This document shows, piece by piece, positions 1 through 63,638 of a stretch of 64,000 bases of DNA (position 1 is the stretch's first letter; each line of letters begins with the position of its first letter). The DNA comes from Yuukianura sp. NJ FZ-2021 (lineage: Eukaryota): positions 6,634,001 through 6,698,000 of the forward strand of contig CM102283.1 in assembly GCA_046563655.1 (NCBI GenBank). Direction: 5' to 3'. The notes under the pieces were generated by a model. It had not been told where the DNA came from. It searched no databases and saw only the letters and a list, made by a program, of their open reading frames with translations. Made by a program: the position numbers and the translations under genes.

Positions 1-141
1 CATCCAATGGGAGAGCATAATGAGCCTAACATTGTTAGCCTAACAATGCCTCCCTTTGTCCCTTATAAGGGAATCCTCTGTTCCCCTCAACCTCCATTGT
101 TGCCTCCATTGTTGAGCCAATTCTGTCCCTTTACTGCAGTG
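1..141. repeat. Probable terminal fragment of a small repeat/MITE-like element cut by the window edge
   Basis: Short internal duplications (cctccattgttg x2, gcctaaca x2) ending in a ...tttactgcagtg terminus-like sequence; the other end is not visible. Confidence 0.25.
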
Positions 142-649
142 TCACTGAAAATTATATAAATAGAATACGTACAATGTCCAAATTCAACAATTGTATTGTA
201 AAGTGCAGTATTCATATGTTATTGTGCTTTCAAAATTTTGATACATCGGATGTGTTTCATTTTATAATATTGTTCAGAAATAGAATTTTTGTGTGTTTCT
301 AACACCTAATAAATCTAACTTTATATTTAATATCAAGGCCCATTCTAACAAGGCAGCCCTGAGCCCTTAGTCAGATCACAGCTTTTGTAATTAACACAAA
401 ATTTTGGTCAAAACGTCCAAATTTTAAAAATCTGTTTGTTAAATCTACAAGTAAATTTTATGTAAATGAAATATTATACCAGTTATGTACCAAGTTTCCC
501 GGAATGCTACGACAGCTACCAAAGAAGTTGTTGAATAGTACTAAAATTGGAACTATTCAATTAAACCCATAGTTAAAGTTTAAATTTTAGGTTCTAGGTT
601 AGGGTTTTTACTTTTTAAGTGAGATTTTCTATAAGGCAGCGGTTACTGT

Positions 650-3600
650 TTAGTTGAGAAATTTTCGACATTTTTTGGTTCCACAAGAACAGGGAAGCTT
701 GACTCCCTCTTCTTCAAATTTATAGTCGTAAGTCAATTCTTCGCCAGCGATTATCTTCCGAAGAGCCATTATCAAAATGTGCTTCTTTCCCAATATTTCA
801 AGCGTCTTTGATCGACAGTTTGGCTACAAGGAAAAAATTAGAAAAAAAATAGTTAGTAATTTTGAAGTTATTCCAACAAGAGGAATGTTGAAGTTGATCG
901 TCAAAATCAAAATTCACTTACATCACAAGAGTGATTGATGAATCGAGCAGCATTTCCTTTGAGAGTTGCATCAACCACCACACGGTCATCAATTCGAAAC
1001 ATGTAGCATCCAATACCTTTCGATTCGTAGTACTTCTCGCGTAAGTCACATAAAACAGGACGGATAACCTAAAACATCAAACAGATTTCCAAAAAATTGT
1101 ATTAGTTTTAAACTATTTTACGAGTTGGGTGTGAACTTCACCTCTCCAGCATATTCGATGATGACATCTCCAGCTTCAATCTCTTTCGTTGTAAACAGTC
1201 CGCGTCCATGAATGCTTGACCAAAACACGTTCAAGTGCTTCGTTCCAAACTTGATCATGTTTCGATACTTCATGGCCATCGGCAGGCTCCCGCCCTTCTT
1301 CTCAGAGCTGTTTAACATAAGAACAATTCGATAATTAGAAGTGAAATTAAGGTTTCACCAGAGTTTTCATTTTGAAATTTAAAAATAGTTTAAACTTACA
1401 TTCTAGAAGACACTGCTGGAACTTCCGGCTGACGATGTTTAGAAGCCAACCATCCAAACATATCAAAAGGCTTTCTGCCACTAAATCCTTCACTTCGAGC
1501 TGCTCCAGTAGGATTCTCAACTACTGGTGAATCTTCAATAGATGCCTTGGGTGGTTCTTGAAATTTAAAAACATGGCCTTCCTTTGCGGCATTTTTCACA
1601 CCAGGGAGTTGCTCCAGAAGAAACTGAACTGCACGATGAGTTAGCCCAAGTTTATTGAAACTTGCAGCAGCTTCTCTTTTGTTTTCTAAAAAAAAAAACA
1701 CAAATTTCGTAAACTCAAATTCAGGTATAGATTAAAATCCAACGTTTTATATACCTGGAAGAGAAATGTTAGTTGCCGGATAAGACAGTGGTGGCAAATT
1801 ATGATTTCGTCTAGTTCCTTGGACACGTTCCAAAATGTATCCCCATACGGCTCTCACGTCGCATGATTTGTACTGTACTTTGTCATCAATTTTGACTTCA
1901 TAGACAATAACTGCACGATGAGTCTGCAAAAATAAACAAAATTATAATTTTAGTTGTAATAACACTTTAAAACGTTTTTTAAATCTTTACCAGCCGCAGA
2001 GGTGTTTGGTTCGGTTGCCCTTTCTCGTCCAATTCTAAACTGGACGGTACCGGTAGAATCACTGAAGTTTCTAAACACGTTCTACTTTCGTTTCCTTCAG
2101 CACTGTCGTCTTCTGCTATCGTTCGATTAGAATCTTCATCATCTCCATCTGCATTTGGATCTGGAATTGGAATTGTGTACACAACTGGTTGTACAACTAC
2201 ATCAGTCGAAGTACCCGCCTGGTCACCCGTTGTAATCTTCCCCTTAATTTTCAAAGTTTTGAACATTCCGGGGAATTGATTGTTGGGAGTAGCCGTCGAA
2301 CCGCTGATTTTATTAATCGAATAAGAATCACCACCAGCCTGCCTTTTCAACCGGATTTTTATACTTGTTTTGTCTGCATTTGGCAGTGTCGGTTTTTCTG
2401 GAGTCGGATTGCTTGGTTTTTCTGGAGTCACAGACGGTGACTTCTTAATGTCACCAACTTCTTTATTTGCTGTGTCCGGGGGAAGAATAGGTTCAACTGG
2501 CATGTCATGTTGTTCTGGAAGTGTCACTTGGTCCATTGTAGTTTCAGTTGGCGACGGCGACGGTGCAGTAGGAATTGGAAAATGAGTGACATTCGGAGTC
2601 ACGCTGTGATCAGTCGTAATTGGTCGTTCTGGTGTCGTAGGAGCTACCAGATTGAGATTAACTTCTAACTGGCTATTGGTATTCATGGAAGACGGGAATG
2701 TAAATGAAGATCCGAGTTGTTGTATTTGATCAGAAATTTTCTGGAGCGGATGTTGTTCCATGGGTCGAACTACAGCTATATTTGGAGATGGTGTTGGTGC
2801 TTTGAGAAGTGTTGGAGCAGTTGAGGCCGAGACGATTGGAGCTGCCAAGGAATTTAAAGTGACGGTGGCTGCTGGTGTGAGAGGATGAGTTAGAACAGTC
2901 GGGGGTTGCGGTGGCTTAAAGCTATCAGTGGAATCACCTATCTGCGCCTGTCCTTCAGTGACATTCATGAACGACGGGCCTTGTCTGACAGTGGTAGTTG
3001 TGGAAGTAGTAGCGGCAGTAGCTGGAAGTAACTTCGGAAGTGTCGAATTCGGTGAGGTCATTGACCGGAACAGTTGGAGACCCTGACCTTGCCGCTCCGA
3101 GACAATACTTGCCAGACGAGCACGCACTCTACCAGTTTTTTGTTTTCGGACGTTCGCAACTGCTGGGGGCTTTTGGATCGTCCAGAAAGGCGGATTCATT
3201 TGCAGAACGGTATTGAAAGATGTTGGAAGGCGAAGACAATCTGCACATGAACAATTCGAAACTTTGTGATTGGTGGGCTGTCTTGTACACTCGTGACTCG
3301 TTCCAGGTATTTGTTCGGACTGAAAACTTTGTAAATTTTCTGGTGAAGTTGTGACGATAGGAGGATGGTTGAGTGACTGTTGACTTTCTTCTGGATATGG
3401 ATTCGCTGGAAGATATGTACGTTGATGCTGGTGAGCATACATTGTTGGATCAGCTGACACAAGAGTTTGAGTATTTCCTTGCTGGACAACCATGTAAGTA
3501 GCTAAACCGTCAGATGTTTGATGTATTTGCTGGTGTCGTGGGGCTCCAGTAGCCGTCAGTCCATGTTGCTGATGTTGGTGCAGAACAGGATTCACGGCAT

Positions 3601-6600
3601 TCATCAACATTGACGTCGATGTTGAAGATGCTTGAGCAGTACTTTGGTAGTATACTTGATTTTCACATTGACCTGCATGGTGGCTCACAGCCCTTGGAAT
3701 ATGTTGTTGTTGTTGTAGAATTTCTCGTTGATGTTGTTCATTTTGATAACTTGTTGAATGCTGACTGTGTTGAAGTAGCGTATTTCGATGGAGGTGAGCT
3801 GCCGTCTGAATTTGGTGTTTATATTGTTCATACTGGGCTTCAGTAGGTTGATGGGGAGTTGGCAGTGGTGGTGGCGCTTGAGAAATATTGTTGTAGACTG
3901 AATGCTGGTGCAAGAACGTAGGATGGTGAGGTGCTGCGGGGTTTCCTTGCTGTTGTTGCGGCACAACAGGAACTTGCTGCTGCTGCTGGGTCATAACAGG
4001 AACTTGAATTGTTATCAGCTGACCCGTAGCTGCATCTTGGAAAGTCATTGTTTGTAGCTGCTGATGTGAATTTGGATATTGAAAAAATGGTGACTGAAAT
4101 TGCTGCTGGAATGGCGCTGCTCCAAACGCAGGAGGTTGTACGGTTTGAAAATTTTGAAAATTCTGTACGGGCAGTGACGGTACATTGAGTTCTTGTTGTA
4201 GAGGTGGCCTTGGATACTGATTTGGAAAACCTTGTAATTCGTTCATATTTGTAACAGGGTAACTAGGAGGTTCCGAGACTGGATTCCAACTGGTTTCACC
4301 AACATAGTCATTGGAGGACGACGTTCCAGTAGGTGGTAGGTTCACATTATGTTCTGTATATGGAATTGGAGTTCTTGGCTCTTGTGACTTTGCGTCAGGA
4401 AATTGACCCAAAGTATCGACAGACTCAGATTCCGGTGCATTTCCCTCTTCTTGTGACCCAAACATGCTCATTGCCTCAGCAATTTGGTCAACTTCGTTCT
4501 CACAATGTTCTTCTTCAGCATCAGCTGGAGGTGGTAGTACTTGTTCCTTGACGTCCACTAAAATATTTCCTTGGACTTCAGCACCAGTGTTATAGTCAAC
4601 GTTATTCTCGTCATCAATTACAGGAATTCCTGCCTCAGAGAGCATTTCTTCCTCTGGAACGGAATCAGCAGCATCGGAGAGTCCAGTGATGTCACAAGGA
4701 AGTACTTTAACTTCTTCATCTTCATGTACTTCCACAATTGTGCTGGAACAAGATGTTGAAATTTGGTTGATAGGGTGATTTTGAACGATAGCAGCAGACA
4801 TTGATGTCATTTCGTCACACATGGATTCAGACGAGTCAGATGTTTCTGTATCGCTGTCATCAGATGCGATACTGGCTGGATAATTCCCCAAGGGTAGAAA
4901 TGTTGACGGCCTTGGAAGTACTGCTTCATCTGTTCTGTTAACTTCATCATCCAAGTCCTCCTCTTCATCATCACTTTCGCTACTAATTCCTAAAACGACG
5001 CAGTTCCCCAGATGATTCTTGTAGCTCTGACTAGTTCTGTACGTATTCTTACACCTAACGCAATACACTCTTCCAGCATCATCCGCAACTGGAGATTCCT
5101 TGGGTACCGGAATTTCAGTGGTGTCGAAACTTGTATCCCCGTCATGCGACATTTCACTATCCTCTTCGTCACTTCTATGTTTCAAATGTCTGACGGTACC
5201 ATGATATGAATCAAAAGAGTTTCCCGGATATCGAGAAGTGCTTGGTCCAGGCAAGGAACTTGAGGTACTGGATGATTCCAGCATGTCGACGACTGGAACA
5301 ATATTGGCAGTTGGAGATTTCTTCTTAGCAGCCTTCGGCTTCCTTCCGCGTTTCTTTGGACTTTCAGATGTTGCTTTTGGTACTGGAGTATCCGTTACAG
5401 TTGATTGGTTACTTTTGTTCGATTTCTTCCGGGAGTTCTTGTGTTTACAAAACTTCAAATGACGTGTGAGTGACGCTTGACTGGAAAAATCTTTTTTACA
5501 TCCCGAACATTTGAATTCTTGTTTCTTCTGTGATGCTAGTTTCGCTTCTTGCAATTTCTTCCTACTTCGCAAAGCTCGTCCACCGTAGACAGAGTCCCTC
5601 CTCGACGTATCTGCTTTATGGCTTGACGAGTTGACATCTTTAGACTTCTTGGAAAGTTTGTCCTGTGGGTGCTTGCTTAAAACTTTCTTGGCAGTATTTG
5701 TCCCTCCTTTGGTTCTAGTACTTGAAAGTTTTGCTTGTTTTTGCTTCTTGTCCATTTTGGCAGCACTGGAACCCTTAAAAAAAATTAATTCAATAATGTT
5801 AAAATTATTAAAACGTTATTTATCCTTTTTGCTGAATTACTTGTCTCTGATCTCCCTCGCTGTCACTGTCACTGCTGACACTGGAAAGCGATTGAGAATC
5901 TTCATCATCGTCGCTCGAATCAGAGTCACCAGCACCATCCACTTGAGGAATGAGAAACTGACGGTAATGGTAATTTCGTATCTTATTGGCGGGAGTGACA
6001 TCCAGGAAATCATCTTCGTCACCATAAACAGTTTCAGCATCGGTGTCAGCAATACTGACTTCTGAGGAAGAACCTTTTCGTTTGAAATAAGTGCCTTCGT
6101 CGGAGTAGTTGTACACAGCACAATATGGATGTTCAATGTGAACATGTACGGTGGCGTTGACACGTCGCGTCGAGGTCTGCTCAATCATATCTGCATAGTC
6201 GAAGGCGTCAATCACAGTTTCAGCGTCAGTGTCAGCAATACTTTCTTCCGATACAGAGCCGTTTCTTGTCAAATAAGCTTCTTCTTCAGTGTACTTGTAC
6301 ACGGCACAATATGGATGCTCGATGTGAACTTGCCTAGTGGCTTTCTTTTCCAAAATATCGGCGTAGTCGAAGTCGTCAGTCACAGTTTCAGCGTCGGAGT
6401 CCACCACTGTTTCGTCCGTTTCGCTTCGGATTTCAACCTCGCTGTTGGCGTCGTCAATCACAGTTTCCGCGTCGGTGTCGACCAGAGTTTCGTCCGATTC
6501 GGTTCGGATTTCAACCTTGTCAGAGTAGCCAGTTTCCGCTTCAGCGTCGGTATCCACCACTGTTTCGTCCGATTCGGTTCGAATTTCAACGTCCTGATCC

Positions 6601-9600
6601 TTATCGGAGTCATCAATCGTTGTTTCAGCGTCGGTGACCACCAGAGTTTCGTCTGATTCGGTTCGGATTTCGGCTTCCTTCTTAGACTCACTGGCAATGT
6701 GTTCGCTCACATTGTCTAATTCGTCCCAGTCTTCATTTCCACCAATCAAATCGTCGAAACAGGCATCAAAGTCTTCTTTCTCGGCTTCAACGACACACGT
6801 TCTGAACAAATCGTCTTCAAGTGACATTGCTGAACTAATGCTTCTTTGGTCGTCGTCTTCCCCATCCATGTCAGCATCGCTGCCACTTGAATCTAGCGTG
6901 TCTTCGAACAAGAGTCCACATGGATACAGCCACTCGTTGTAATATTCGTCAATGTACTTCGGTGTTGTGTCTACCCAGTCATGGAAAGCTTTCACTTGTT
7001 TCAACTTTTGGGCAATTTTAGGCTGGGATTTTGTATGGTCCACTCGGATGTTTATGTCGCGTAACTTTCTGCAGTACTTTGATCTTCTAGCTTCTTGCTT
7101 CTTAACGACAGTGTTGACACTATACGTCAGTTTCTTAGGAAACTTTGACGTTGAGGAGGAAGAAGTATCAAACGACCAGAATACTCGCGATGCTTCGTAG
7201 TTCAATGGTATTAGGGAAGATTCGTCGAAGTCTTTCTCCACAGATAGCGGAGCCAAGTGACCAAGAGACTCGATCTTCAGAGAGCCAATGTAGACGGCGA
7301 CGTTGTCGGACCAGAGGACTTTGTCTTTCTTCCTTATCCAGTCCGTGTCGACATGAACTTGACGAAGTACCTACAAATTCGGTTTTTTAGGATTAGCACG
7401 TAGTAGTAGTATGTACGTAGTTAAATTTTTTTTTCAAGTTTCCGGTGGTTGTTATTGAGAAGGACTTAAGGACTAATGGTAATTTGTTTTCTGGGAGACT
7501 GAAACGTACCCTCATGTCTAGTTGCCTTGGACCCTTGGATCTACTGACATGTTCAGAGCAAAACATCCCTTTGTCCTCGAGAAGAATACAGGAACTCCGT
7601 AAGGCACAGGGAAAGTGGAATGATTTTGGGCAGGATTGAACACAGCATGAGACGCTCGCCCCCCTTTCCCCGCAAATCATACAATTGAGACCCTTGCTCC
7701 GTCCAAGGGCTACTCCAACCTATAAATTAAACCAAATGAAAAGAAGAATTATGATCTTTCATCCCAAACTTTAAAATTCTAAAGCCAAATTCAAAAAATT
7801 CAAAAACCAAAACAAAAAAAAAAGTTCCACCAACCTGTTTCAAAGCTCCATCTTCGTCTTCCCATACCTCGGAAGACCATAGGGCGCAGTTGACATGAAC
7901 CCATTCAGACAAACCGGCCCACAATAGTCGTCCACAGAAATCGGGCGGAGAATCTCCCGCTTTTTGACAGAATGAGCACAAACGTGGATCAGTTTCCAGT
8001 CCTTTGTCCCATCTAAAGTCTTCAAATGGATTCCATAAGCGAAGTTCTGCATTGCTAATTTCTTGTAGTTTAAAGCTCTCTTCCTCTTCAACTTCTTGCT
8101 TAAAAGATGTCGTCGATTCTGCTTCTTGCGCAGAGTTGACATCTTCGAAGTCATGAGAGTTGAACCATGGAAATACTTTGGTAAAAGCAGACTCAAAATG
8201 GGATTTTAGCTGGCACTGGGGAGCGCTTTCTTCAAGATTTGTAATAAACTTCAATGCCTTTTCGTAGATAGATTTGACGGATAAGGCAGGGAAGTTGAGT
8301 TGGTCAATGATGGAATCCCTGACAGAACTGGCAAGTTTTGAAGGACTGGCAATTGTCGCCACTGGTTGAAATTTTACCGGTGTCATGTATACTTCTAGCT
8401 CAACTTTGGGTTCAATTGTTGTGGATGGTAAGGGGATGGACTTTTGGTTTTGTTTCGGCAGCAGCGGTGGTGATGTGGACAATTTCTGGCAATCTTGCAG
8501 CAGTATAAAGCATTCCTTGTCTACCAATTTTGACTTTGTCGAATTCAGCGACGATTCACGTATTTTTTCATTGAGCTTTTCGTTTGGAGCGCCAACACTA
8601 CTGGAACTGTGATTTGAAAATAGTTGCCTCACGACTGTTGTGTTTTCTTTGCTGGATGGCGATGGTGCTTTGGCGGGAAAAAGTAAATCAGGAACCACTG
8701 TGATATGTGACATGTTGTTAGGTTTCACTGGTGTATTTTCACGACTCGGTTGAAGTATGCGAAGTTTGCGGGAGGAAACGCTAACCCTATTCTGAAATAA
8801 GTCCAGTACTTCTTTCCAGTCAGACTCGATTTGGGACAAAACTGCTTTCCGCCAGTACACACTTCGCGGATCTTCACATTCCCTGGAAATATTTACGACA
8901 AAAAAAAACGTATAAGCAAAATTGAACTAACGTGAATGACATCATCGTCGCTATCTGCTAGAAACTCTACTAAAAAAAAAAGACAACGAAGATAAAAATG
9001 CAAATGACCTGCAAATAAACTCCACAGATTCTGGAAGATTACTAAGAATTTGATACTGCTCCGCTGTTACGTTTTCACAGTCAGCATGAATCCAGTGTTC
9101 ACATCTTGCACATTCCATCATCTAAAATTTCAATTAAAAATCATTAGTTGGAAAGGAATTAAGTCATAAGAAAATTGTTAGGTACACTTTTACCTTTGTG
9201 TCGAAGTCATCGTCATCATAGCATACAGAGCAGAGTGGACAGTACGACCCTTTCTTCTTTTGCCGGATACAAACTTGGCACAATTGCTTTTGATCAGTAT
9301 CGTTTTTGTTCCCTCGACGCTCAATTCGTTTCCCACAACTGCTGCACTTGTAACACTGTTCACAGAGTCGAATTTTCTGACTTCCTTTCTTGACTCCTTG
9401 GGGACAACAATTGGCATGGACAACACGAGGACAAGACGGACATTTAAGAAACGTCGGATCTTTGGTACAGCTTTTGGAATTACTGGAAGGCAAATCGTGG
9501 CTCTTGCAAACATAACAAACGTAACATCTTTCACAGTTCCAAGTCCGCAACATCTTTTTCAATTCTAAAACTTTAGTTTGTTCCATGTCCTGGTCTGGAC

Positions 9601-11593
9601 TGTAGTAAGTGCTTGAGGAACTTGGCGTAAACGTTGGCGATAGAACTGAGATTTCATGTTTCATTTCAGACACTGAATTTAATTGATGCTCAAGCGACAA
9701 GGATTCACCGGTTGGTTTGGTTTCTAGTTCGGAATGAGTAATGGAGATGGATGGAATACAGGCGACATATGCAGATAGAACTGATTCGTGTCCGGTACAG
9801 TAGGGATGGTAAGGCTCACAACAACTCGAACAAAATATCAACTGCAATTTTCAAAAACAGTTAACACTTGTAAACTACTATAATCTAAAGGCAATACTAA
9901 AAGTGCATTCTCGCTGTTCAGCGAGCAAGCATTTATGAAGGTTAGGTTTAGGATAATGGCAGGAAACGTTTAGCGACCATTGACCATTTTTAATAGTTCC
10001 GCGCCAATTCAAAAACTTGAAACCATTTTGAAACTTGAAAGGTTTTCAACTTAAACAAAAACGAAAGAAAATTCAAAAAATAACGATTAACGATAAGAAG
10101 CAAAAATAATTAGGGGTGGTTAGGCTTTAGAAGCAAAGGAAAAACGTAAGAATAGTGTAAGTGCTAAATGCGTGTTCCAGAATATTAGTTCGAGAGGCAA
10201 TAATGTACTTGTCCGATTCCAGCGGAGCCACAACGGAAGCACAGTGGTCCTGGAGGGGCCACTTTCTGCGACTTATCAATGATCACCGGGAAGCCATACT
10301 CGAGACTGTCTTGCAAACCAACTGGACACTGGTTGAGTCGGACCAACGTTTTCTCGGATTCAGTTCCGTGTGGTTCCTGTACAGCCAATTACAAATTTCG
10401 TATGTCAGGACAACGATCAGTGAATTCAGAATAATGTGAGAGCTTTTTATGATAAAGTCAAAGTGCTGTGAATCTTTGAAGTATGAAAAAGGCTTAAAAC
10501 AGTGATAAAAAACAGAATCAAAAACAGTATTTTGAAGTATGGTAACTCACATCTTGATTTCGGAGGTCTGAGACAGGGGGGAATTTATTCTCGACGTTCT
10601 CGTCATCGGACTCATCAGAATCAGAGTCACTTTCCATTTCAACAATAAACTTTCCCGATCTATAACCTGAATCTGGAATAAGTTATATTTGTTATCAATC
10701 AACAATAAACATTGTGTGATAATAAATAAGGTTGAGCAAGAACTCAAAGTTCCGTAAACAGCAGGCACAAATCATAAATAAAGCAAAGTAAAATAGTAAA
10801 AATTATGAAGTAACTCAGTAAGTTGCCCATACTTGTTGGAATGTCCCGAGCGTATCTGACAATTGGAATGCCGCTGATGGGAATATTGCACATGGCGCCG
10901 GAGACTAGTCGCAAAGGCAGTGGAGACAGAGGTGTCGTAAACGTTGCGGATGCTGCCAACGTTTGTCGAGCTACAGAAAGTACAAAGTCAATTATCAACT
11001 CCGGAGTTAATAAAGCAAAACCAATTACACAAATTCGTTACCTGTCGTGTTTTCTGCTGCTTGTAGAGTTCGAGTAGTAGATTTTGTAACCGATGCGTGA
11101 CTATTCGTCGAAAACCGGGCTACAGCTGATGACGAGACATTCACACCGGAACTTCGTACGTCTGGCTTGTAAAACGAAGGTTGGACACCCAATTCCTGGA
11201 GCTTGACCTCAAGAGAGTAAATCTCGCTTTGAATTCGTCCGTGGTTCATCTTCAGTCGATTGGCAAACTCTTGGTCAAATCCAAGACATCCATCCTATAA
11301 ATGATGCAACGTCAAAATTAACATTTGAATAAAAGTTAAAATCAAGTTGAAGTTAAAATTAAACTTTGTACATTGCTGACCTCATTATCATCATCTTCCT
11401 GACCGAATAGATCACGGAAAATCTTTGATCGGCTCACGATTTCAGCCTCAATGGCAACCATTTCCGCCGGAAGAACTTTCTCATCGATGCTCCTGTCTTT
11501 GTAAGACACAGATACATGGTCCTCCATGGTCCTGGTTCCATTTAGAAATCGCTTCACAGGCTTCCCCGGAAACTTGGCTCTTTGGCTGGACAT
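650..11593 (-). CDS. trx: Trithorax/MLL1-2 family histone H3K4 methyltransferase, multi-exon
   Basis: N-terminal RAKFPGKP (menin-binding-like); PHD1-3 ([39 protein letters not shown]); extended PHD ([21 protein letters not shown]); Taspase1-type QVDGAGD; WIN motif [20 protein letters not shown] ([28 protein letters not shown]); post-SET ending KCRKFLN* at 650-652. The introns I checked join in phase. Confidence 0.95.
6030..6670 (-). repeat. Coding tandem repeats in trx: four EIR(T/S)E(S/T)DET..(T/S)DAE units plus a duplicated ~50-aa block containing [10 protein letters not shown]
   Basis: Visible directly in ORF 5820..7256 and at DNA level (repeated gtttcgtccgattcggttcg.atttc). Confidence 0.9.
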
Positions 11594-13961
11594 CCTTGCA
11601 TATGCTTACTGCAGTTAACCTTTACGATTAAGGTCAGATTAGAATCTATCTCTGACAATCAATTGAAAGCCAAAGTGTGATGATAGTAAGGCTTACTATA
11701 AGTAAGCCCGACGTTGTAAGACTTTAATCAAGCAGACATTAAGTAAAGTGGCGATTAATTACATCACCACAACTTAACAAAGGGAATTAGTAATTAAATT
11801 CTCCCCTGCAATTGCAAATCACTAGGATTTACTAAACTAAAACACTGGTTGCTTTTGTACACGAACAGGTGAGCCCATTGTTCCCATTTTTTCATCACCA
11901 CAATTGGGCAAAGGTTGGTATTTTAAAAAATCATCCAAACTTTCGTAATCTTTGAAAGCAAAATTTTGATTATAACAAAAAAAAATTAGCAACCGAGCAA
12001 AAGCACATTACCACAACAAGCTAAGTAACACAGTCATTGGAGGTTTCGAACCATAAATAGGCAATAATAAATTAATTATACTAAAATAACTAGTAATGGC
12101 GAAGAGTAGTAATTATGGAACTCTTGGAGTGACCTAAAAATTCCTGGAATCAAAAAACAGTGGCACCGAAATTTCCCGCTCTTGTTTGGAGGGAAGAAAT
12201 TTGTACTAATTTGGGGCATGCTAAGAATATAGTTTTACCCAGGGTATTATATGGGTTTTACCCCCTTATGCACATGAATTAATATATTATTGTTTCAATG
12301 AAGTAATCAAATGAATATTTGAATAAATTCTGACATTGTAATATATCATTTTCATTACTCATTCATGTGTGTCATAGTCATAGGTATAATTTAAAATTTT
12401 GCTGAGCACTAGCACAATAGCATGAGCACATGAAAGATGCTGCGTTATATTATTACTATTAAAGTTAACTCCAAGTTCGGTTTTGCATTGGTGTTCGGTC
12501 TAAGATTTGTCATCGACGGAATTAAAATAAGAACTAAATCATAAAATATTTTCAAAATATAATTTGTCATAACTTATTCTTATGATACACGTGCCAATGG
12601 CGTCAGTAAGTTAGGAAAGGAAAGAGCGTATGAAGTTCAATAAATTCTGTCGCCTTCGCAGAACCATAAGTACACAGTGTTACTGTACACTGCGACGTTA
12701 AATATTTTTTAGGCCGAATGCCAACTGGAGCTGAAATTTGTGTCACTGTCATTTGTGTTTTGACACTTTCGATGAACTTGACCAATGTACATAAGAAGCC
12801 AAGCGAAGATGGAAGTTTTGAAGGTAACGATCCCGTTGGGAAATGAACTGAAATTTTTACTACTTAAGTAACCGTGAAACTCCATTAGTACTTTGGAATT
12901 TTTAGATACTCTTTCCAATTGAAAACGTCAAATTTTAAATTTTATTTCCCATTACGACTTTTAAGCAGGAGCTAACGGAAGTGAGGCGCTTAAATTTTTA
13001 TGATTATTGGAACAGTTGACCTTAAATCCATCTGGTTTCCATTACACAGTCCTTCAAAAGAATTCCAAGGAAGTTGGCCATTCGCCTACAAATAAATCCG
13101 TCCCGAATTAAATTTTAAATAAACATGTTATGTTTATTTCAATGCTCATGACTTCAATCTGGAAGTTCATAAAATTATACGCCCAAGATCAAAACTTAGC
13201 GCGACGCCTACAATACAGAGTACAAAGCAGTCCAGTAGGTTTTTAGTTTAATTCTTCCAAAAGTATGAAAATAATAAAATTTCAATTTTATGTTCTGTTT
13301 TTCTGAGCAAACGATCTGATTGGCTAAACATTTTGCTAATTGTGTTGTGTTTGATTTGATATTTGGAATTCAATTCAGCGGATTTCTCAGAAACATGAAA
13401 TGACTCGAAAAATTGATCTTCGCAGAAACGCGTCTGCCTTTTATTGGATAAAAATTCGAAATGTGTGAACAAGATTGGACTGAAGTTGTCAAAGATCAAG
13501 TTGCAAAAAGTAGCCATGGCTCCAACACCTACGTAGCATGCTAATATTTCTCGTCTTCCTGTCGCAAAAATCCGCGCCATGCAAAATAATGTCTTTTCAT
13601 GAAAACCGAAAACAGAAATTGCGTATGGGGAGTTTAGCTGCTAAGGAAAAGAAGAGATTTTCTAAAAACAGTTCACTGAATCACGTCAAATAAAAATAGA
13701 ATTTTGAATGAAAATGCAGAGCTCAAAACGAGACGCCTCCACTTTGAAAAGGTTTTTCGAATGTGTTCAAACAAAATTTGCAAGAGCTCTGAAAGAGACG
13801 CTTTACTGAAAAAGTTCTGAACAGTTAACATTTTTCAAGTGTTTCGTGCTTGCGTTCCACTTTCTGATCCTTGGACTAAACATTTTGAATTGAGTTTTTG
13901 AAATTTTCAAAAAACAGAGAAAAAAGGAAACTGTAACTTTCACAGTGCAAAAACGGGACAA

Positions 13962-14714
13962 ATGGAAAAAATGTCATCCGATTCAGGGCGTTTCCGATGT
14001 CTTTCTACTAAATCAGTGTTTCAAACCACAAAAGTTATTGCAATTGTGGATTTGGTGAGTAATGGACTTTTTTTTTTGCCAAATTATCATTTTGTCAAAA
14101 TTTGTTTTTTGACTGAAAATTTTGAATTCCCAGATTTTGTTTGCGTTTTGCTTCTTGTCCGTGTCAATCCTTTCGATCTTGTACGTTAGTAGCGTCGGTG
14201 GCCTCCGATTTGTACTGCATCCTCTGCAAGCCGATTTGCAAAAATTTCTGAAATTGCGAGGTAAAACGAAATCAAATTTTGAAAAAAAAAAATTCTGAAA
14301 AATGTATTTTTTAATTTAGGGCTGATCAAAATTTGGATTATTGTGAGTCTGCTACTTTGGTGCTTAGCAGAAATTGGATTTGCTTGTCTTCTGTACTTCG
14401 GAACGAAAAAGGTTTACGAATTTTTTGGATTTAATTTTTTAAGTCCAATTCCGTGTAGTGAGAATACTAAAATTTAATTTTTTTTAACTTTGAAATTGTT
14501 GCAGCGATCTTATGGCATGCTGCGGACGTGGATATTTCTAGTGATCGTTGACTCTCTATTTGCAATGATGGTTTTCATTCAATTGATTGCATCCACTACG
14601 CATTTCGTTCTGTACATCGTCATTGCTATCGTGTACTACACGTACAGGATACTTGCCCTCTGGGTTGTCCATTTGGTACTACGTGAAATAATGCAACAGG
14701 TTGAATGGGTATAA
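13962..14714 (+). CDS. Uncharacterised four-transmembrane protein, 4 exons (13962-14054, 14134-14260, 14321-14411, 14505-14714)
   Basis: GT-AG introns join in frame; four hydrophobic segments (VIAIVDLILFAFCFLSVSILSILYV; IWIIVSLLLWCLAEIGFACLLYFG; TWIFLVIVDSLFAMMVFIQLI; FVLYIVIAIVYY). Confidence 0.75.
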
Positions 14715-14923
14715 GCTGTTGGAAGCAGGTCAAAGGTCAAATAACTCTCACCGCACAACTTTTCACTGTAAACTCAGATAATTTAATTGTAAATATCTTA
14801 ACTTTCACTCGTTAAGTTTTGAATGCAAAAAAGTGTGTCTGTATATTAAATATTAGGTTAATTTTTAGATGTAGTATTTGAATTGATATGCATTCATTCT
14901 AGTAACTTATTATTCCGGATCTG

Positions 14924-16349
14924 TTATTTCTCATTATTTTTCTGAACGCAATTTTCGCCCTTCCATTCCACCCTCACAAGATTTCCTTCTGTTTCGGAAT
15001 CAGTATCACATTTGCCTTGTGGAATCCGTTCCCGGAGAGTTCTAAGCTTGTCCTTATATAAACGTTGCAACACGCCGAGTTTGTAGGCATCAATTTCAGA
15101 GAACTTTAGAAGAAATTGCTGACGGGCTTCATCTGAAACCACAAATCAAACATCTCATCTGTATTTAACAAAATTGGGATAGTTATCTCCAACAGTTCCA
15201 TGCCAAAACCTTTCTTACCTTGATGCATTGGACAGAAGTAACACAAACCGTTTTGATCTTCGTCCATTTTTAATGCCCCTCTAATCCACCTCGCAAACTT
15301 GGGGCCTGTATGTATTTTCACATAGAACTTGTTCCGCTTCGAATAAGAATCGAGGGTCAAAATTTGACTGGTTGGGATCCCAATTTTCTTAGTTTCACCT
15401 GGAAAGCACAAAATCTAAAGTTGTAATGCTGTTAGCCTTGTCCTGGCGGGGCTTAATAATACGCAAATTGGCAAGCTACTAATACAAACCCTAGTGGTTA
15501 AAACGTAGCGTAAGAGGCACAATACTTGCAGTAAAAAGAGAACATTGTACTTTGACATACCAGTTTGATAAGCAGGAAGTTGCAAATATAGTCCAACTTC
15601 TCCTATAGTTACACGAATACACAAACTTTCAGTTGAGAAGACGACATAGGTACCGATCCGGACGTAGCTGCAAGCTGCAAGGGCAAATGCGGAGCCATTA
15701 CTCTTATTTGCCACATCACAAAGTTTTCCAATCACTGCAAAATATGAAATTTTATGGATTAGAACCTTATCAAGGATTTAGACAAGCTTACAAACTTTAG
15801 TCACAACTCACCACCTTCTGGTGTTAATTTTTCAGTAGCTGTCGTTGTTGTGACCTTTTCCAACGATTGTGCTGGTACTGGTTTTGATGAAGCTGGCGAC
15901 GAAAGAACGGAAGACGGAAATGCAACTGCTGTTGCTGTTGTTTCGTTATTTGTTTCTTCATTGCTATTCCGAGAGGCCAAGGCCCTCATCTAAAATTATT
16001 ACAACACCAATTGAATTTAAGCTCAGTTTATGTTATCAAATGAAACTCACTTTCTCATGTGCAATGTTCGCATGCCTCAGAATGGCAATGATATCTCCCA
16101 AGGCAGTGATCCCCATAGCGCGGAGATTCTCTTGCGTAAGATCCAACAGCATGTCCGGCTTAATCCTGTTATCTTCAAACAGCAACGCATATTTGGTGTC
16201 GAAAATGTGAGGAATTCCAGCATTCCTAAAGAAGTCCAACCAGAAGGCTACAAAAACCCAGATTACACGTTAAAACAAATTGAATTCCCAAATTAATACC
16301 TAAATTAGTGTAAATTCTTACCGTATAACTTACCCGTTTCAGCAGACAT
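14924..16349 (-). CDS. C19orf47-like N-terminal SAM-like domain protein with a C-terminal SENP6/7-type PH-like domain, 6 exons
   Basis: Spliced MSAETAFWLDFFRNAGIP..KYALLFEDNRIKPDMLLDLTQENLRAMGITALGDIIAILRHA matches the C19orf47 N-terminus as I recall it. Later exons give CSYVRIGTY..WIRGALKM..YFCPMHQDEARQQFLLKF. Confidence 0.75.
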
Positions 16350-16952
16350 GTTGAGGCATCTACACAGGTACAGGCCGTTCGTTCAGTGGTTTTTAAACTA
16401 AGAAATTTAACTTTTAACTTTTAATTTAATTTGACACCTTAATTTAATTTAATGTTTTTTAACAAGAAATTTGTAAACAACGTGGTGAGAGTGAGGGATG
16501 CCATCACACAGAAGTTCACCGGAGTGAAAATCATAACTCAGAGTTGGACAAATGTAGTAATTAAAAAAAACTTTATTTTCTTATTGAGGAAACAATTTGT
16601 TTGGTTTGCTTGCCATGAAATTGCTTCAAAAATTTAAAACTATCCAATTTCTGCAGCAACTGGAATGAATTTGCTTAATTTTCAGGGTTAATTTGAAGTG
16701 TCAAGCATCTTATCTAGTCAGGCATTTAATCAGCAGTACAAGAAAGGTACCAGATCGCAACTAACTAAAGGCACGACCACGAGTGGCTGGGATGGGACTG
16801 AGAGACGAAGAAAGCAAGCCAAAAAATTTTCGCATTTGTTTGCGAATGAATGATGAGTATCACTGGCGATACTGATTAGTGATTACAATTAGTAATTAGC
16901 AAGAAACTCGAATAGTTGCTGCTACTCGGGCTAAGGAATTTGCTGATCAGTC

Positions 16953-19900
16953 ATGAGTTCAACAAGCAGCAAGCCAACAACTGCTTCGTCAGCTGATCAA
17001 AAGAAACCTAGGCAGGATATCACTAAAAACGTAAGATCCTCGTAAAAGTGTTGAAAATGCTGTTAATTTGACATTCTACCTATACTAATTTTGTTCAATT
17101 TCTGCAGAAAGGGAAAGTTGGCGACTGGGTGAGGCACACAAGTTCGTCAGGCAAAGAATATTACTACAATGTCATTACACATGCTTCACAATGGGAGAAG
17201 CCTAAAGAATGGCTGGACCATGAGCAGCGACATGGACCGGTTCCCAACGTCCCTGCAGTAAGTAGCAGCCGAGTCCAGCCAAGCGGAAGCAAACCGCAGC
17301 AGCATTCTTCTGGCAGTACGTCCAGCAACGTTTCTCAGCAACATATCGACCGAGAACGGGACCGTGAACATCACCAGCAACTGCACCAACAACAACAACG
17401 AGAACGTGAGGCAGCACAGCGAGACAGATATCACCAGCAACACCAGTATCGTGGTAATAGTAGCAGTTTTCAGCAGCCATCAACTTCATCAGCTTCTGGG
17501 AGCAACACTTCAACACATGTCCATCCCGGGACAAGTACTTCCACATCATACAATAATTCCTGGAATACCTCAGCAAATGCACATCACCATCACCAGCAAC
17601 AGCATCATCATGGGTCAATGTCTGGCGAGCGACAAACTCCCGCTCCATATAGCCATTCTCATAGTAGTGCTACCTCCAGCAGCAGCAGTATTGCAATTCC
17701 CTCTACAAGTTCTTCAATATATTCTCAGGGGTCAAGTCGCAGTCATTACATGGATAATCGTCCTTCCTCATCGATGTCCGCTATGCATCAATCTATTCGT
17801 GAGCGTGACCCTAGAAAACAGAATGATGGCAAAGGTAATTAATTATATTTCATAAATGTGACAATGTGAGTACCTTATATGCTTACTTCAATTTCTCTTT
17901 AGATGGACAAGGAGATGATATGGACATTTCACCTTTGGATGAAGAGACTGGGGCAGGGTCAATAGACGCACCAAATCGAGCAGTCGCTTCGTCACATTCC
18001 CAATCTGGCACGAACGTTCCTGGAACGTCAGCCTCCAGTTATGGAAGTAGGAACCTCGAGCGGGAACGTGACAGAGAACGAGAACGGGAAAGAGAGCGAG
18101 ATGATCGAGAGTCATACAGTAAGTGCTGAGGACATTTTAATTATATATTAATAATTAATTACTATATTCTTCCTAAACTTATTAATCTCGATACTGATCA
18201 TACCAAGGAAAGCTTCAGGAGATTCTTTTGAAATTTTGTTATGTTATTTCCTTGGTTGCATTAGTATTCCCTCCTTCCCTTTCCTAGGACTGTCCCAGTT
18301 GAATGGTGGAGGTGAAGACACATACTCTCAAAGTCCAATGTCATCGCAATCAACTTCGTTATTATCCAAAGTGGTCCGGGCCAGTGAACTAGTTCAAGAG
18401 TATCTGACAACAGGCAGCCCTGGAATTGACAAATTCCTGCTAGGTGGAATACCGACGTTTGGAATAACCGAAATCTCTGGCGACAGTGGAACAGGCAAAA
18501 CTCAACTGTCTCTTCAGTTGTGTATCATGGTCCACCTACCAGTAGTTTCCGGAGGCCTCAATTCAGGCGCCATGTTTATCAGTACTGAAAAAGTTTTTCC
18601 TGCCGAGCGACTTGCAGAATTAGTACAGCACTTTCTTCCTCGACTTGGAACTGCAAGGAGTGAAGACATCATGGATGCAATTTACGTTGAGCGAATTGGA
18701 ACTGTCGAAGGATTGATTGACTGTTTGGAGACTCGTGTGCCAGTGCTGCTGCTGTCGAAGAAAATTCGGTTGATTGTGATTGACTCCCTTGCGGCGTTAG
18801 TACGAGCAGAATACGAATCACACAAAGTGTCAAAACGGACATCAGATCTCCGGAAAATCTCCAGTATTCTGCACGATCTGTCACGCCGTGCGCATCCAGC
18901 AAGTATTTCAATCATTGTTGTGAATCAAATGACTGCATCACTTTCAGCAGGAGTTAACATTCCAGCATTGGGTTTGACCTGGACCAATTGTGTTACAACG
19001 AGACTCCAAATCCTGAGGAATGACAACCAAAGACTGCTAGGAGTCATCCATGCTTTTCATATTCCACTGTCTTGTATTCCTATTGTACTGGACGAATCTG
19101 GAATTCGAGCTACTTCTGATTCCCAAGCAGTCGTAGCGTCAACTACTATAATTAAAGTGTGCCTAATTCTTACTAATTTAAATTGCAATTTGCATACTAT
19201 CAAAGAACCTTGGAGGAAATTTTTTTTAAACTTATGTTTTTTTTTTCAGGAAACTATCAAGCTCGAGAACGCAGCAGGGATCCGCGGGAAAACGCAAGAA
19301 AGGAAAGAGAACGAACGGATAACCGCGGTCAACGGCGTGACCAAGAACTGACCAGTAGAGATCCGCGTGACAAAGATCGTGACCAACGGACTTCGAGAAC
19401 CAACAATTCTAGGGAAGATCGGTCGAGAAGTCCTGTCTGGGACAAGGATCGCACTCCAGAACGTCGTACGTCAATTCAGTCCAATATTAATCAATTAACT
19501 CCAATGTTGTTAACATTTACTTAAGTAACTTTTTAACGTTTATGTGTCATTCCACTTGTGTTACAGAAGGTGACGCAACGCTGAGCCTCGGACTTAGCTC
19601 GCTGGAAACGGCCAGTGAAAAGGAAATTCCAGATTTTCTGCCACAATCTTTAGCTGTTTACTTTCGGGAAGATCTCATCGCGCATGTGAAAAATTTGCCT
19701 GGAGAAGGTTTAGAACGAACGGTTAGTAAATCATAAGCTGTTAAAAGACCGTAGATTTCCAAATAGTACCCCAGGGGTACTCATTGTTTCGTTGTACTCG
19801 GGGGAGTGGTACTGATGGGGGTACTATTTGGAAGTTTACGGTAACTTTCTGATAAGTTCTATTTCTAAATCTGGATGATCCAGGATTATTCTCGGAATTG

Positions 19901-20142
19901 ATGACTTAAAACCTTCATTATCTTTTTGACAGGCCAATAAATTAATGGACGAACTTCTGACTACAAATTCCATTTCACTGTCCAAGGTTTCCAGTGAACT
20001 GAAGATGGCGCGGAGTTTGGTTCGCCTAACAGACATACAAGCTACGCTCCAGGAACAGAAGATTCTGTTCCTTCGACAACAAATTAAGGACCTTGAGGAG
20101 AGCGATGCCACTTCTGGGCTTGGCATTGAAGCTTCGATGTAA
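16953..20142 (+). CDS. WAC: WW domain-containing adapter with coiled-coil (WAC/wacky); exons 16953-17030, 17108-17834, 17903-18118, 19250-19465, 19567-19721, 19933-20142
   Basis: WW domain ([27 protein letters not shown]), DMDISP motif, C-terminal [34 protein letters not shown] coiled coil; splice phases consistent. Confidence 0.92.
18288..19351 (+). CDS. XRCC3: XRCC3/spindle-B-like RAD51 paralogue, intronless core nested in WAC intron 3 on the same strand (first in-exon ATG 18338)
   Basis: [33 protein letters not shown] (Walker A), [20 protein letters not shown] (Walker B), VVNQM, PALGLTW. Confidence 0.88.
19748..19843. mobile_element. Small MITE-like element (~95 bp) in the last WAC intron
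   Basis: 25-bp terminal inverted repeats accgtagatttccaaatagtacccc / ggggtactatttggaagtttacggt with 2 mismatches; right end followed by TA. Confidence 0.7.
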
Positions 20143-20673: not shown

Positions 20674-22605
<1,932 letters not shown>

Positions 22606-61652: not shown

Positions 61653-63638
61653 TTATGGGGAAATAACGCCGTTAATAAAATCCAAGTACGCCGTCACGCG
61701 ACTAAAAGTGATGGGCTTTCCATTTCCACAATTTTCTGAACCAAAAGACAGGACACCTAACTGAACAAACCAATCCATCATTCTAGACGAATCTGGTCGG
61801 ATCTTTTCCTGATGAAATCGATCTCGATGAGACTTGGTAAAGTAGCACTGGTTGACCTGATTATCGTCATTAACAACAGCTGGAACTTCTTCAGCAATAT
61901 TTGGAGTACGACTGAATCGGGCAATAAGAGGAGCACCAGAGTCACCACGACAAGGAGATCCATCCCCAGTTACCGTATCAGTACATAACATATTTCCAGT
62001 TATCAAGTTTCGGTAAGTTTTACGGCATTCCTCGTTTGAAATGACAGGCATTGTGGCTTTTCTCAAGACAGGAGTCACTGGATGTTCATCGATTCCGTGC
62101 GAAGCTAGAAAAGACAAAAAATGAGTAGTTAACGAAGGTTAAAGGCTCAAGAAAGTATTGAAAATGTGCTGCACTTGCCTAAAATGTCATCGCCCCATCC
62201 CATTGTGGTCAAATTCCAGCCGACGAAGCTATTTCCCATTGAATGGGCAGTTGGCAAGTACACCGGCTGAACGAAAGCGTCAGTACGAATTTGTCGATGG
62301 AATTTGATAACAGCAATATCATTGACGGTAGTAACTGGATCATAATTTGGATGCTTCACAACGCTTTTCTCTGCCTGTACAACACGATACTGTCTTGTGT
62401 CTTCGTCCTTGCGCATGTCATGAACTCCAAAGTATAACTCAATCTTCTTTGTTCTAAAAGTGTCCAATTTTCAAAATTAACCAAGCATTACTGCCAAGAT
62501 TTTTATTTGAATGTTAACTCACCCTTCTGGAATGCAATGAGCTGCAGTAAGGACATGCAGATTGTCAATTAAGGATCCGCTACAAAGTTTTTCGTCGTCA
62601 ATGATCATGGCTACCACAAATGGAAATTCATGCGGAACGGCTCCTTGTCCTCCGACGATTCGTTGACGTTGTGGAATTTCTCCAGTTGAATCTGGTGGTA
62701 ACGTGATAGGAAGGTAATCACAAATGGCCGTAACGTCAGTGCTGTTTCCATAGTTGACTGGAGGTGGATTTGCACTTCCAGTAGTAGATTCGTCAGCCAC
62801 AAGGCGCCGTGTTACAACATAGGCCATTTTGAATCCACGGTAACTAAAGATGTCAAAGCCTGACGTAAATCTTATGCCAACCTTGTTGCCAACGCTGTCC
62901 AAGGAAATCGGGGCAAGACGGTTCATGTCTCCAGTTAACCTTTAGAAGTAAAACAAAACTTAGAGTTCCCAAAACAAGGAAAAATTTTTGGAAAAAATAC
63001 CGATAGAAGTCGTTCCATTTTCCGTTTAAAGATACAGCAAGGTAATCATGGAAAAACAGAAACCAAGGCTGAGTCACGACGTCAAAAAATGTTAATCGAA
63101 TGACAGTTCCAGGTTCACTCTAATTGGACAAAAAAAATTTAATATTAATTAAAATTATTACTTTGATGTTGTAAATAGTCCAGATAAACCTGTATGGTCC
63201 ATTGACATCTAAGTCCTGCCGCATAATTCTTGGGATACTTCGGAGAAGTGATGACACCGGATGAACCAATCGTCAAGTTTTCAAACTCTTGTGAGCACTC
63301 TTTAAAAAAAATGGAAATATTTACATTTTAGAAAAAATTTTCAGGTTTCAGAAAAGTTGGTTACCTTTTTGTGGTCGAAATGCATCTTCGCCTTCATTCC
63401 GTTTTTCAAAACCAATGTGGGATGGATTTGGCAAATATTGGAACAATCTGAACGGATAGTTCCAGTCAAAAGCGTATGAAGGCGTCAACCCGGTAAGTTT
63501 ACTCGACAGTTTGATTTGATTCTAAAGAAATACAATGCATTAATTTTTTACTCTTAACCAGAATAAAGATTTTTGATTCTTTACCCCGCAGGAATACGAA
63601 ATTAAAAGCAGGAAACAGCAGAACTGAAAATACGCCAT
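61653..63638 (-). CDS. Secreted CUB-domain S1 serine protease, chymotrypsin/brachyurin-like
   Basis: Signal exon MAYFQFCCFLLLISYSCG (63638-63585); CUB (GVITSPKYPKNY..CQWTI..HDYL..RFTS..RGF); RIVGG; TAAHC; NDIA; SPCRGDSGAP. Confidence 0.92.

Follow-up and report, generated by a model that had tools for sequence, protein, structure and literature searches.

How is a gene expressed that lies on the same strand inside an intron of another gene, with a strong splice acceptor-like sequence just ahead of its start codon? This question is raised by a 64,000-nucleotide (nt) stretch of the genome of Yuukianura sp. NJ FZ-2021 (GenBank assembly GCA_046563655.1, contig CM102283.1, positions 6,634,001 to 6,698,000 of the forward strand; the whole stretch is called the window below, and positions are counted from its first letter), in which an open reading frame (ORF) resembling the RAD51 paralogue XRCC3 occupies intron 3 of a WAC gene. 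A preliminary description of the window had proposed that the ORF serves as an in-frame cassette exon of WAC, so that splicing could yield either normal WAC or a chimera of WAC and XRCC3. The reading that we favour, and on which belief and doubt are for us about evenly balanced, is that XRCC3 is an ordinary, conserved and autonomously translated gene nested on the same strand in WAC intron 3. Transcription would then begin at a start site in the stretch of intron, roughly 200 nt long, that precedes the ORF, and translation at the gene's own ATG (18338). The pyrimidine tract ahead of this ATG would be an element close to the promoter or in the 5' leader, or else a cryptic acceptor that is tolerated, and the 71-codon tail by which the ORF reaches into WAC exon 4 would reflect either a recent frameshift by one base or an indel in the assembly. 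We infer autonomous transcription and translation of XRCC3 from the base rate, from a comparison of branch-point motifs, from the autonomous state of the gene in relatives and because no protein with a fused architecture was found.

Identity of the nested ORF and its host gene

The reading frame is uninterrupted from 18155 to 19351, and the region of homology to XRCC3 (18356-19123) lies wholly within intron 3, while the ORF in its sequenced form runs on to a stop at 19351, inside exon 4. When the part from 18338 to 19138 was compared with proteins of solved structure using phmmer, XRCC3 ranked first (E-values 4.2e-44 and 3.3e-37), followed at a distance by RadA (7e-27), RAD51B (1.1e-25), RAD51C (7e-20) and RAD51D (7.5e-11), with RAD51 and DMC1 also below XRCC3. 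The Pfam Rad51 family (PF08423) was matched with an E-value of 1.2e-28 over profile positions 7-241 of 244, and Walker A and Walker B motifs are present (Table 1). The alignment to XRCC3 begins at about residue 72, and the N-terminal helical domain is missing: PF26169, which is annotated on relatives carrying the domain (P0005, P0006, and P0008), had no match in the 354-aa ORF, and tblastn with four domain-bearing relatives found no exon encoding the domain in the 64 kilobases (kb) of the window (best stray match, E-value 0.28). The window likewise holds no second XRCC3-like match better than an E-value of 0.079. With regard to the retro-insertion proposed beforehand, the ORF is intronless here and at two loci from relatives (L001 and L002, see below), and neither an A-run that could be a poly(A) remnant nor a flanking repeat was seen on reading the window sequence. 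The intronless core without a recognisable N-terminal domain that had been described beforehand is thus borne out. Since the closest relatives also lack this domain, its absence is a lineage trait and no ground against orthology, and by sequence comparison the ORF is an XRCC3 orthologue in a short, lineage-specific form without the canonical N-terminal domain.

The closest proteins are ORFs from metagenome or run assemblies, and their starts are ORF calls rather than mapped starts. Their identities to the window ORF are 60% (P0001), 56% (P0002), 48% (P0003 and P0004), and 47% (P0048 and P0049). All eight of the closest relatives inspected (P0001-P0004, P0048, P0196, P0049, and P0051) have a Met start of their own and no WAC-like sequence before the core. 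The N-terminal domain is missing in the closest metagenome or run-assembly relatives and in the springtail Orchesella dallaii (41% identity, in a 663-aa prediction fused to an EF-hand protein); it is present in the XRCC3-like protein of Bemisia (45% identity). In the springtail-like XRCC3 relatives P0031, P0049, and P0051 a leader of 50-90 residues rich in S, Q, and acidic residues stands in place of the canonical domain, and an acidic patch just before the core recurs in L001, where it is upstream of the first ATG, and in L002, where it is within the ORF.

The host gene was modelled with six exons on the plus strand, and a script check of the conceptual mRNA gave a 533-aa ORF without an internal stop. 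A WW domain (Pfam PF00397, E-value 2e-9) lies in the translation of exon 2, near the N-terminus, and exon 2 is 62% identical over 86 aa to the WAC protein of Allacma fusca (P0201). Exon 6 shares 70% identity over 69 aa with the C-terminus of Allacma WAC and 85% over 66 aa with L001, and from this comparison it probably encodes the coiled-coil region. The best named relative was the 494-aa 'WW domain-containing protein' of Allacma fusca, and WAC-named proteins of flies, a shark, and a starfish came next. In tblastn searches the parts of Allacma WAC map in order on exons 2, 3, 4, 5, and 6, with no segment corresponding to the XRCC3 region between exons 3 and 4. These named matches and the collinear Allacma parts identify the host gene, on the sequence comparison, as a WAC orthologue, and the animal as probably a springtail or a near relative. 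Intron 3 is 1131 nt long, compared to 76, 68, 101, and 211 nt for the other four WAC introns.

The arrangement is not peculiar to the window. One metagenome scan gave three loci (L001, L002, and L003), and the first of them, a contig of 7842 nt, contains WAC exons 1-3, XRCC3, WAC exons 4-6 and a gene which we take to encode a UDP-glucose 4-epimerase (GALE), all collinear with the window. The conservation of the nest in a relative, a check that had been proposed with the preliminary description, was thereby obtained, with the same acceptor-like site in the same phase. The WAC model of L001 is intact (568 aa), its counterpart of exon 3 (4066-4317) likewise ends TAC A/gtaagt, and here the entire XRCC3 ORF including its stop lies within the intron. 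Over 266 aligned codons of XRCC3 the proportion of nonsynonymous differences (pN) between the window and L001 is 0.27, that of synonymous differences (pS) is 0.74, which is saturated, and the ratio of the corresponding rates (dN/dS) is ~0.11, demonstrating purifying selection. Judged from these sequences, the XRCC3 orthologue is intact and selectively maintained, and the nest is old, as it also occurs in a species with no more than 60% identity in XRCC3.

The other two loci add less. At L002 (47% identity) the ORF is uninterrupted, its only in-frame ATG is at position 100 and an in-frame TAG lies 24 nt upstream; no WAC similarity was found in its flanks, on a contig that ends ~150 nt ahead of the ORF region and is too short to show a nest. 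L003 (1390-4620) is a second copy of the WAC and XRCC3 locus from the same metagenome as L001, 83-93% identical to it at the nucleotide level in exons and introns alike, and damaged by frameshifts, stops, a deletion of Walker A, and loss of the acceptor AG. It was rejected as an independent third species, being a uniformly diverged and broken copy of an L001-like locus, and looks like either a pseudogene derived from a segmental duplication or a second haplotype that has decayed. The gene call of P0001 shows W at L001 5405-5407, where TGA closes the XRCC3 ORF of L001, and continues beyond it; this contig seems to have been called with a code in which TGA is W, which makes the final 6 residues of P0001 an artefact under the standard code.

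Table 1. Features of the WAC and XRCC3 locus in the window (positions from the first letter of the window).
Feature	Position	Strand	Remarks
WAC exon 1	16953..17030	+	ATG at 16953, ends in phase 0; tblastx conservation with L001
WAC exon 2	17108..17834	+	WW domain and Q/H/S-rich stretch; ends in phase 1
WAC exon 3	17903..18118	+	216 nt; begins and ends in phase 1; followed by donor gtaagt (18119)
WAC intron 3, host of the XRCC3 ORF	18119..19249	+	1131 nt
Acceptor-like site	18267..18287	+	18/18 pyrimidines, then TAG, then GA; AG at 18286-18287
Upstream ATG, out of frame	18303..18305	+	29-codon ORF overlapping the XRCC3 ATG
XRCC3-like ORF	18338..19351	+	First ATG to first in-frame stop; XRCC3 homology ~18356-19123
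Walker A (GDSGTGKT)	18479..18502	+	G..GKTQ columns invariant in the alignment of relatives (A1)
Walker B strand (LIVIDS)	18770..18787	+	D and S invariant in alignment A1
TAG in the +1 frame	19134..19136	+	At the point where the proteins of relatives end
ATTAAA hexamer	19151..19156	+	Candidate poly(A) signal, from sequence reading
WAC exon 4	19250..19465	+	tblastn with Allacma WAC; first 102 nt also in the XRCC3 frame up to TGA 19349-19351
WAC exon 5	19567..19721	+	Sequence reading, tblastx with L001, tblastn with Allacma WAC, script
WAC exon 6	19933..20142	+	Conserved C-terminal region, predicted coiled coil; stop TAA

The acceptor-like site and a possible fusion of WAC to XRCC3

The strongest competitor of an autonomous nested gene is an alternative 3' splice site in intron 3. 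The donor of exon 3 (or of exon 2) would be joined to the AG ending at 18287 by removal, in the case of exon 3, of a 169-nt intron, giving a protein in which WAC residues 1-340 (the WW domain and the Q/S/H-rich and RE/RD-rich regions) are followed by the XRCC3 ATPase core, while use of the distal acceptor at 19249 would give normal WAC. The added exon would not be a cassette; it would be a long exon that in L001 reaches a stop of its own and in the window continues into exon 4. We regard this fusion as a tentative possibility. The claims made beforehand about its 5' side hold: exon 3 ends TAC A/gtaagt in phase 1 at 18118 by sequence reading and by script, and an exon starting at 18288, after 18 pyrimidines out of 18, would be read in the XRCC3 frame, with a conceptual product of exons 1-3 and the XRCC3 exon that is open for 694 codons (script) and a junction peptide identical to the one predicted. 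The donor of exon 2 (17835) is also in phase 1, and joining it to 18288 is therefore equally in frame, with a product open for 622 codons (script).

A number of observations weigh against a purely autonomous gene and speak for such a fusion. Of all YAG sites (Y, pyrimidine) on the two strands of the 64 kb, the one at 18286-18287 is alone in having 17/18 or more pyrimidines before it (one such site on the plus strand, none on the minus strand), and it is more than a chance feature. Its counterpart in L001 (17/18 pyrimidines, TAG/GA, AG at 4501-4502) lies 184 nt after exon 3 in the same phase 1, is again the sole site with 17/18 or more pyrimidines when both strands of the 7.8 kb are considered, and leads to a conceptual product of exons 1-3 and XRCC3 with an open frame of 669 codons, closed by the TGA of the XRCC3 ORF itself. 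Phase and open frame have thus been kept in both species at a pS of 0.74; the pyrimidine element is conserved despite saturated synonymous sites, and given this saturation both the ORF and the element look constrained. Moreover, the lengths of the segment from the AG to the ATG differ between the two species by 12 nt, a multiple of three, and introns of 169 or 184 nt would be typical in length for WAC. The regular exon 4 acceptor of L001 has purines just ahead of its AG and looks weak, and the proximal site should therefore compete well. The short XRCC3 without its usual N-terminal domain would also suit a fused product, and the missing stop of the window ORF would be harmless in a transcript that goes on into exon 4. 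An ORF without a stop before exon 4 is indeed more in keeping with a transcript that XRCC3 shares with WAC than with a gene complete in itself. Room for a promoter is merely 169-219 nt, and the XRCC3 ATG of the window has a C at -3 and is preceded, 35 nt upstream, by an out-of-frame ATG whose ORF overlaps it. A site that is the strongest in the locus, conserved and compatible in phase, together with an ORF that enters exon 4, keeps a WAC-XRCC3 product in play.

In contrast, the branch-point comparison does not favour splicing at this site. All 11 real acceptors inspected (five of WAC in the window, five of WAC in L001, and one of GALE) have a yTnAy motif whose A lies between -13 and -32, a motif that also occurs in 51% of random 40-nt windows, whereas between -13 and -52 the window site has none and the L001 site a single one at -48, leaving neither species with a branch-point-like motif at the usual place. 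Furthermore, pyrimidine-rich YAG sites are not reliable alone as acceptors, since of the 16 such sites in the window with at least 16/18 pyrimidines only about 6 open a frame of at least 40 codons in a crude test. Retention of the frame in a second species is by itself only a one-in-three event, and the relatives of the window ORF are, as described above, autonomous.

Database searches also failed to find a protein combining WW and Rad51 domains: none of 17 longer XRCC3 matches carried WW, none of 12 longer WAC matches carried Rad51, and WW was absent from all 10 N-terminally extended proteins scanned, which were those that, in the best 150 of 5121 representatives, had the longest overhang at the N-terminus or the greatest total length. 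Because RNA data have gone into the annotation of few springtail genomes, this absence is weak evidence. The annotated Allacma WAC, whose parts match exons 3 and 4 in order with nothing of XRCC3 between them, likewise speaks against a fusion. Allacma XRCC3 was not among the matches listed, although Allacma WAC was. In the literature, we found no paper linking XRCC3 with WAC or with a nested intronic position.

Two other uses of the acceptor-like site were considered and dropped. Joining exon 1 to 18288 as a shared non-coding leader was rejected, as it creates a 30-codon upstream ORF in the window and, by reading, a long ORF overlapping the XRCC3 ATG in L001. Spliced-leader trans-splicing was set aside; it is not known to have support in hexapods, and the one paper found on the subject with mention of Collembola deals with a nematode. 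Weighing the evidence on both sides, we consider it rather unlikely that a springtail XRCC3 which has lost its own N-terminal domain is expressed, at least partly, as a long alternative exon of WAC, one transcription unit giving either WAC or a WW-XRCC3 fusion.

The 3' end of the XRCC3 frame

The 3' side of the proposed cassette exon could be assessed directly. For an exon entering at 18288 to leave WAC intact, it must end in a 5' splice site after which exon 4 is again read in the frame of WAC; a script run over the nine GT dinucleotides between 19050 and 19249 found none of this kind, as seven shift the frame and the two that keep it create a TGA at the junction because both end in T before the exon 4 bases. 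The cassette exon was therefore rejected: compatibility in phase on the 5' side, seen in L001 as well, stands, and that on the 3' side fails. Position 19351, previously given as the end of the exon, proved to belong to TGA 19349-19351, the first stop in the XRCC3 frame, which lies inside WAC exon 4 in a frame different from that of WAC.

The sequence leading up to this TGA (window 19118-19351) includes a tail of 71 codons, 37 intronic and 34 in exon 4, which has no counterpart in relatives, whose proteins stop 7-12 residues past a G-I/F-R motif. With a TAG in the +1 frame exactly where the proteins of relatives end, and just before it a run of three C (19122-4), whose shortening by one base would put this TAG in frame, the tail may stem from a recent frameshift by one base or from an indel in the assembly. 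In the shifted frame, TAG 19134-6 followed by ATTAAA at 19151-6 would make a normal, compact 3' end. As sequenced, there is no stop before exon 4, and any transcript coding for XRCC3 must therefore extend into WAC exon 4.

This last point bears on a second alternative, which we consider improbable, namely that WAC and XRCC3 form a partly merged transcription unit without a meaningful chimera. The acceptor-like site would then be a decoy, or a dead-end branch, by which WAC output is tuned, or an XRCC3 mRNA started in the intron would share exons 4-6 and the poly(A) site with WAC. The strength and conservation of the element would suit such a unit, as would the end of the XRCC3 frame within exon 4 and the finding that neither AATAAA nor ATTAAA was seen, by reading, between the XRCC3 stop of L001 and exon 4. 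However, a decoy need not keep the frame open in two species, the missing stop is explained by a single-base shift that brings the +1-frame TAG into use, and poly(A) signals seem to be generally non-canonical here, with no AATAAA seen by reading in the 200 nt past the WAC stop. That the window copy is becoming a pseudogene, having lost its stop by a real frameshift and making a damaged protein or none, is most improbable, since all 267 codons to the end of homology are intact, the catalytic motifs are kept and dN/dS is low, and the lesion, if real, hits only the extreme C-terminus, even though the ORF continues 71 codons past the end of its relatives through intron sequence and a relative carries a second, broken copy of the entire locus (L003).

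The start of XRCC3

For an autonomous nested gene, the sequence ahead of the ORF would have to supply both promoter and leader. The upstream space of about 170 bp that had been pointed out was confirmed, with 169 nt of intron 3 before position 18288 and 219 nt before the first ATG (18338), which the acceptor-like site precedes by 51 nt. Within the 169 nt, no plausible donor for a small XRCC3-specific 5' exon was seen on reading the window and L001. The upstream ATG at 18303 would be relevant only if the transcript begins ahead of it. In favour of translation from the XRCC3 Met, its context is similar in the window and L001, 'SP(E)M'. The 58 nt upstream of the AG gave a local alignment score of 24 between the window and L001, compared to 16.2 +/- 2.7 for shuffled sequences, of which 34 of 2000 reached 24; as one non-homologous intron pair scores equally, this conservation is only modest. 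Short conserved blocks upstream of the tract would fit a promoter as well as a splice site.

Comparison with known systems

The nested protein resembles XRCC3 of known structure (8gja chain B and 9omy chain X) in its RecA/Rad51-fold ATPase core and in Walker A and B, and the named relatives of the window ORF are annotated as XRCC3. XRCC3 joins RAD51C in the CX3 complex and has a role in homologous recombination. It differs in lacking the N-terminal helical domain found in the relatives from Amphiura, Owenia, and Bemisia, and in the unmatched 71-codon tail of the window copy. The host protein is like WAC in its N-terminal WW domain and, by sequence comparison, in a conserved C-terminal region that is probably a coiled coil. 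In human cells, WAC is a partner of the RNF20/RNF40 dimer, which it contacts by way of coiled-coil motifs and connects to RNA polymerase II (PMC8045150). The window protein, at 533 aa, is shorter than the fly proteins of 692-899 aa, and its gene hosts a repair gene in intron 3.

Pairs of host and nested genes are a recognised class (PMC11694760). The window pair agrees with this class in that the XRCC3 homology region lies within one WAC intron, an arrangement kept in a second species, and differs from it in being on the same strand with an unusually strong, phase-compatible acceptor-like site before the nested ATG. If the acceptor were real, the nearest working analogue would be the cholinergic locus. 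There, the first intron of ChAT contains the VAChT ORF. The mRNAs of the two genes share sequence, and the structure of the locus is conserved from invertebrates to mammals (bioRxiv 10.1101/2021.03.29.437568). The cholinergic genes have a common 5' exon and their proteins remain separate, whereas in the window the nearest WAC donors are coding and in phase 1; hence sharing would fuse the proteins, unlike at the cholinergic locus.

Neighbouring genes and other sites in the window

The presumed GALE-like gene, named from an N-terminal Rossmann motif, is found at 20708-21253 of the window and 7077-7623 of L001. It begins ~560 nt past the WAC stop and is collinear and 72-80% identical in L001. On the other side of WAC, a conserved gene at 14010-14717 of the window corresponds to 1670-2386 of L001 with up to 80% identity. 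With these two neighbours, the synteny between the window and L001 therefore covers at least four genes. Elsewhere in the window, exon starts at 62104 and 25224, both on the minus strand and both behind strong pyrimidine-tract acceptors, open frames that by eye resemble a serine protease of the trypsin type (GDSGAPL) and a mitochondrial carrier, respectively.

Implications

If the fusion were true, the locus would produce a natural chimera of a WW domain and a RAD51 paralogue by alternative splicing, which could recruit a RAD51 paralogue to RNA polymerase II during elongation and would offer a way to study transcription-coupled recombination factors. The functional switch envisaged at the outset, between an adaptor of H2B ubiquitination and a recombination factor tethered to RNA polymerase II, is at this point pure conjecture. 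Taken as an autonomous nested gene, which is the reading that we favour, XRCC3 and WAC would form a tidy, conserved, same-strand pair of nested and host gene in a compact arthropod genome, and would not be surprising beyond that. The locus also records a short form of XRCC3 without the N-terminal domain that is usual for this paralogue, and it may be useful for annotation, since gene predictors tend to miss nested genes on the same strand as their host.

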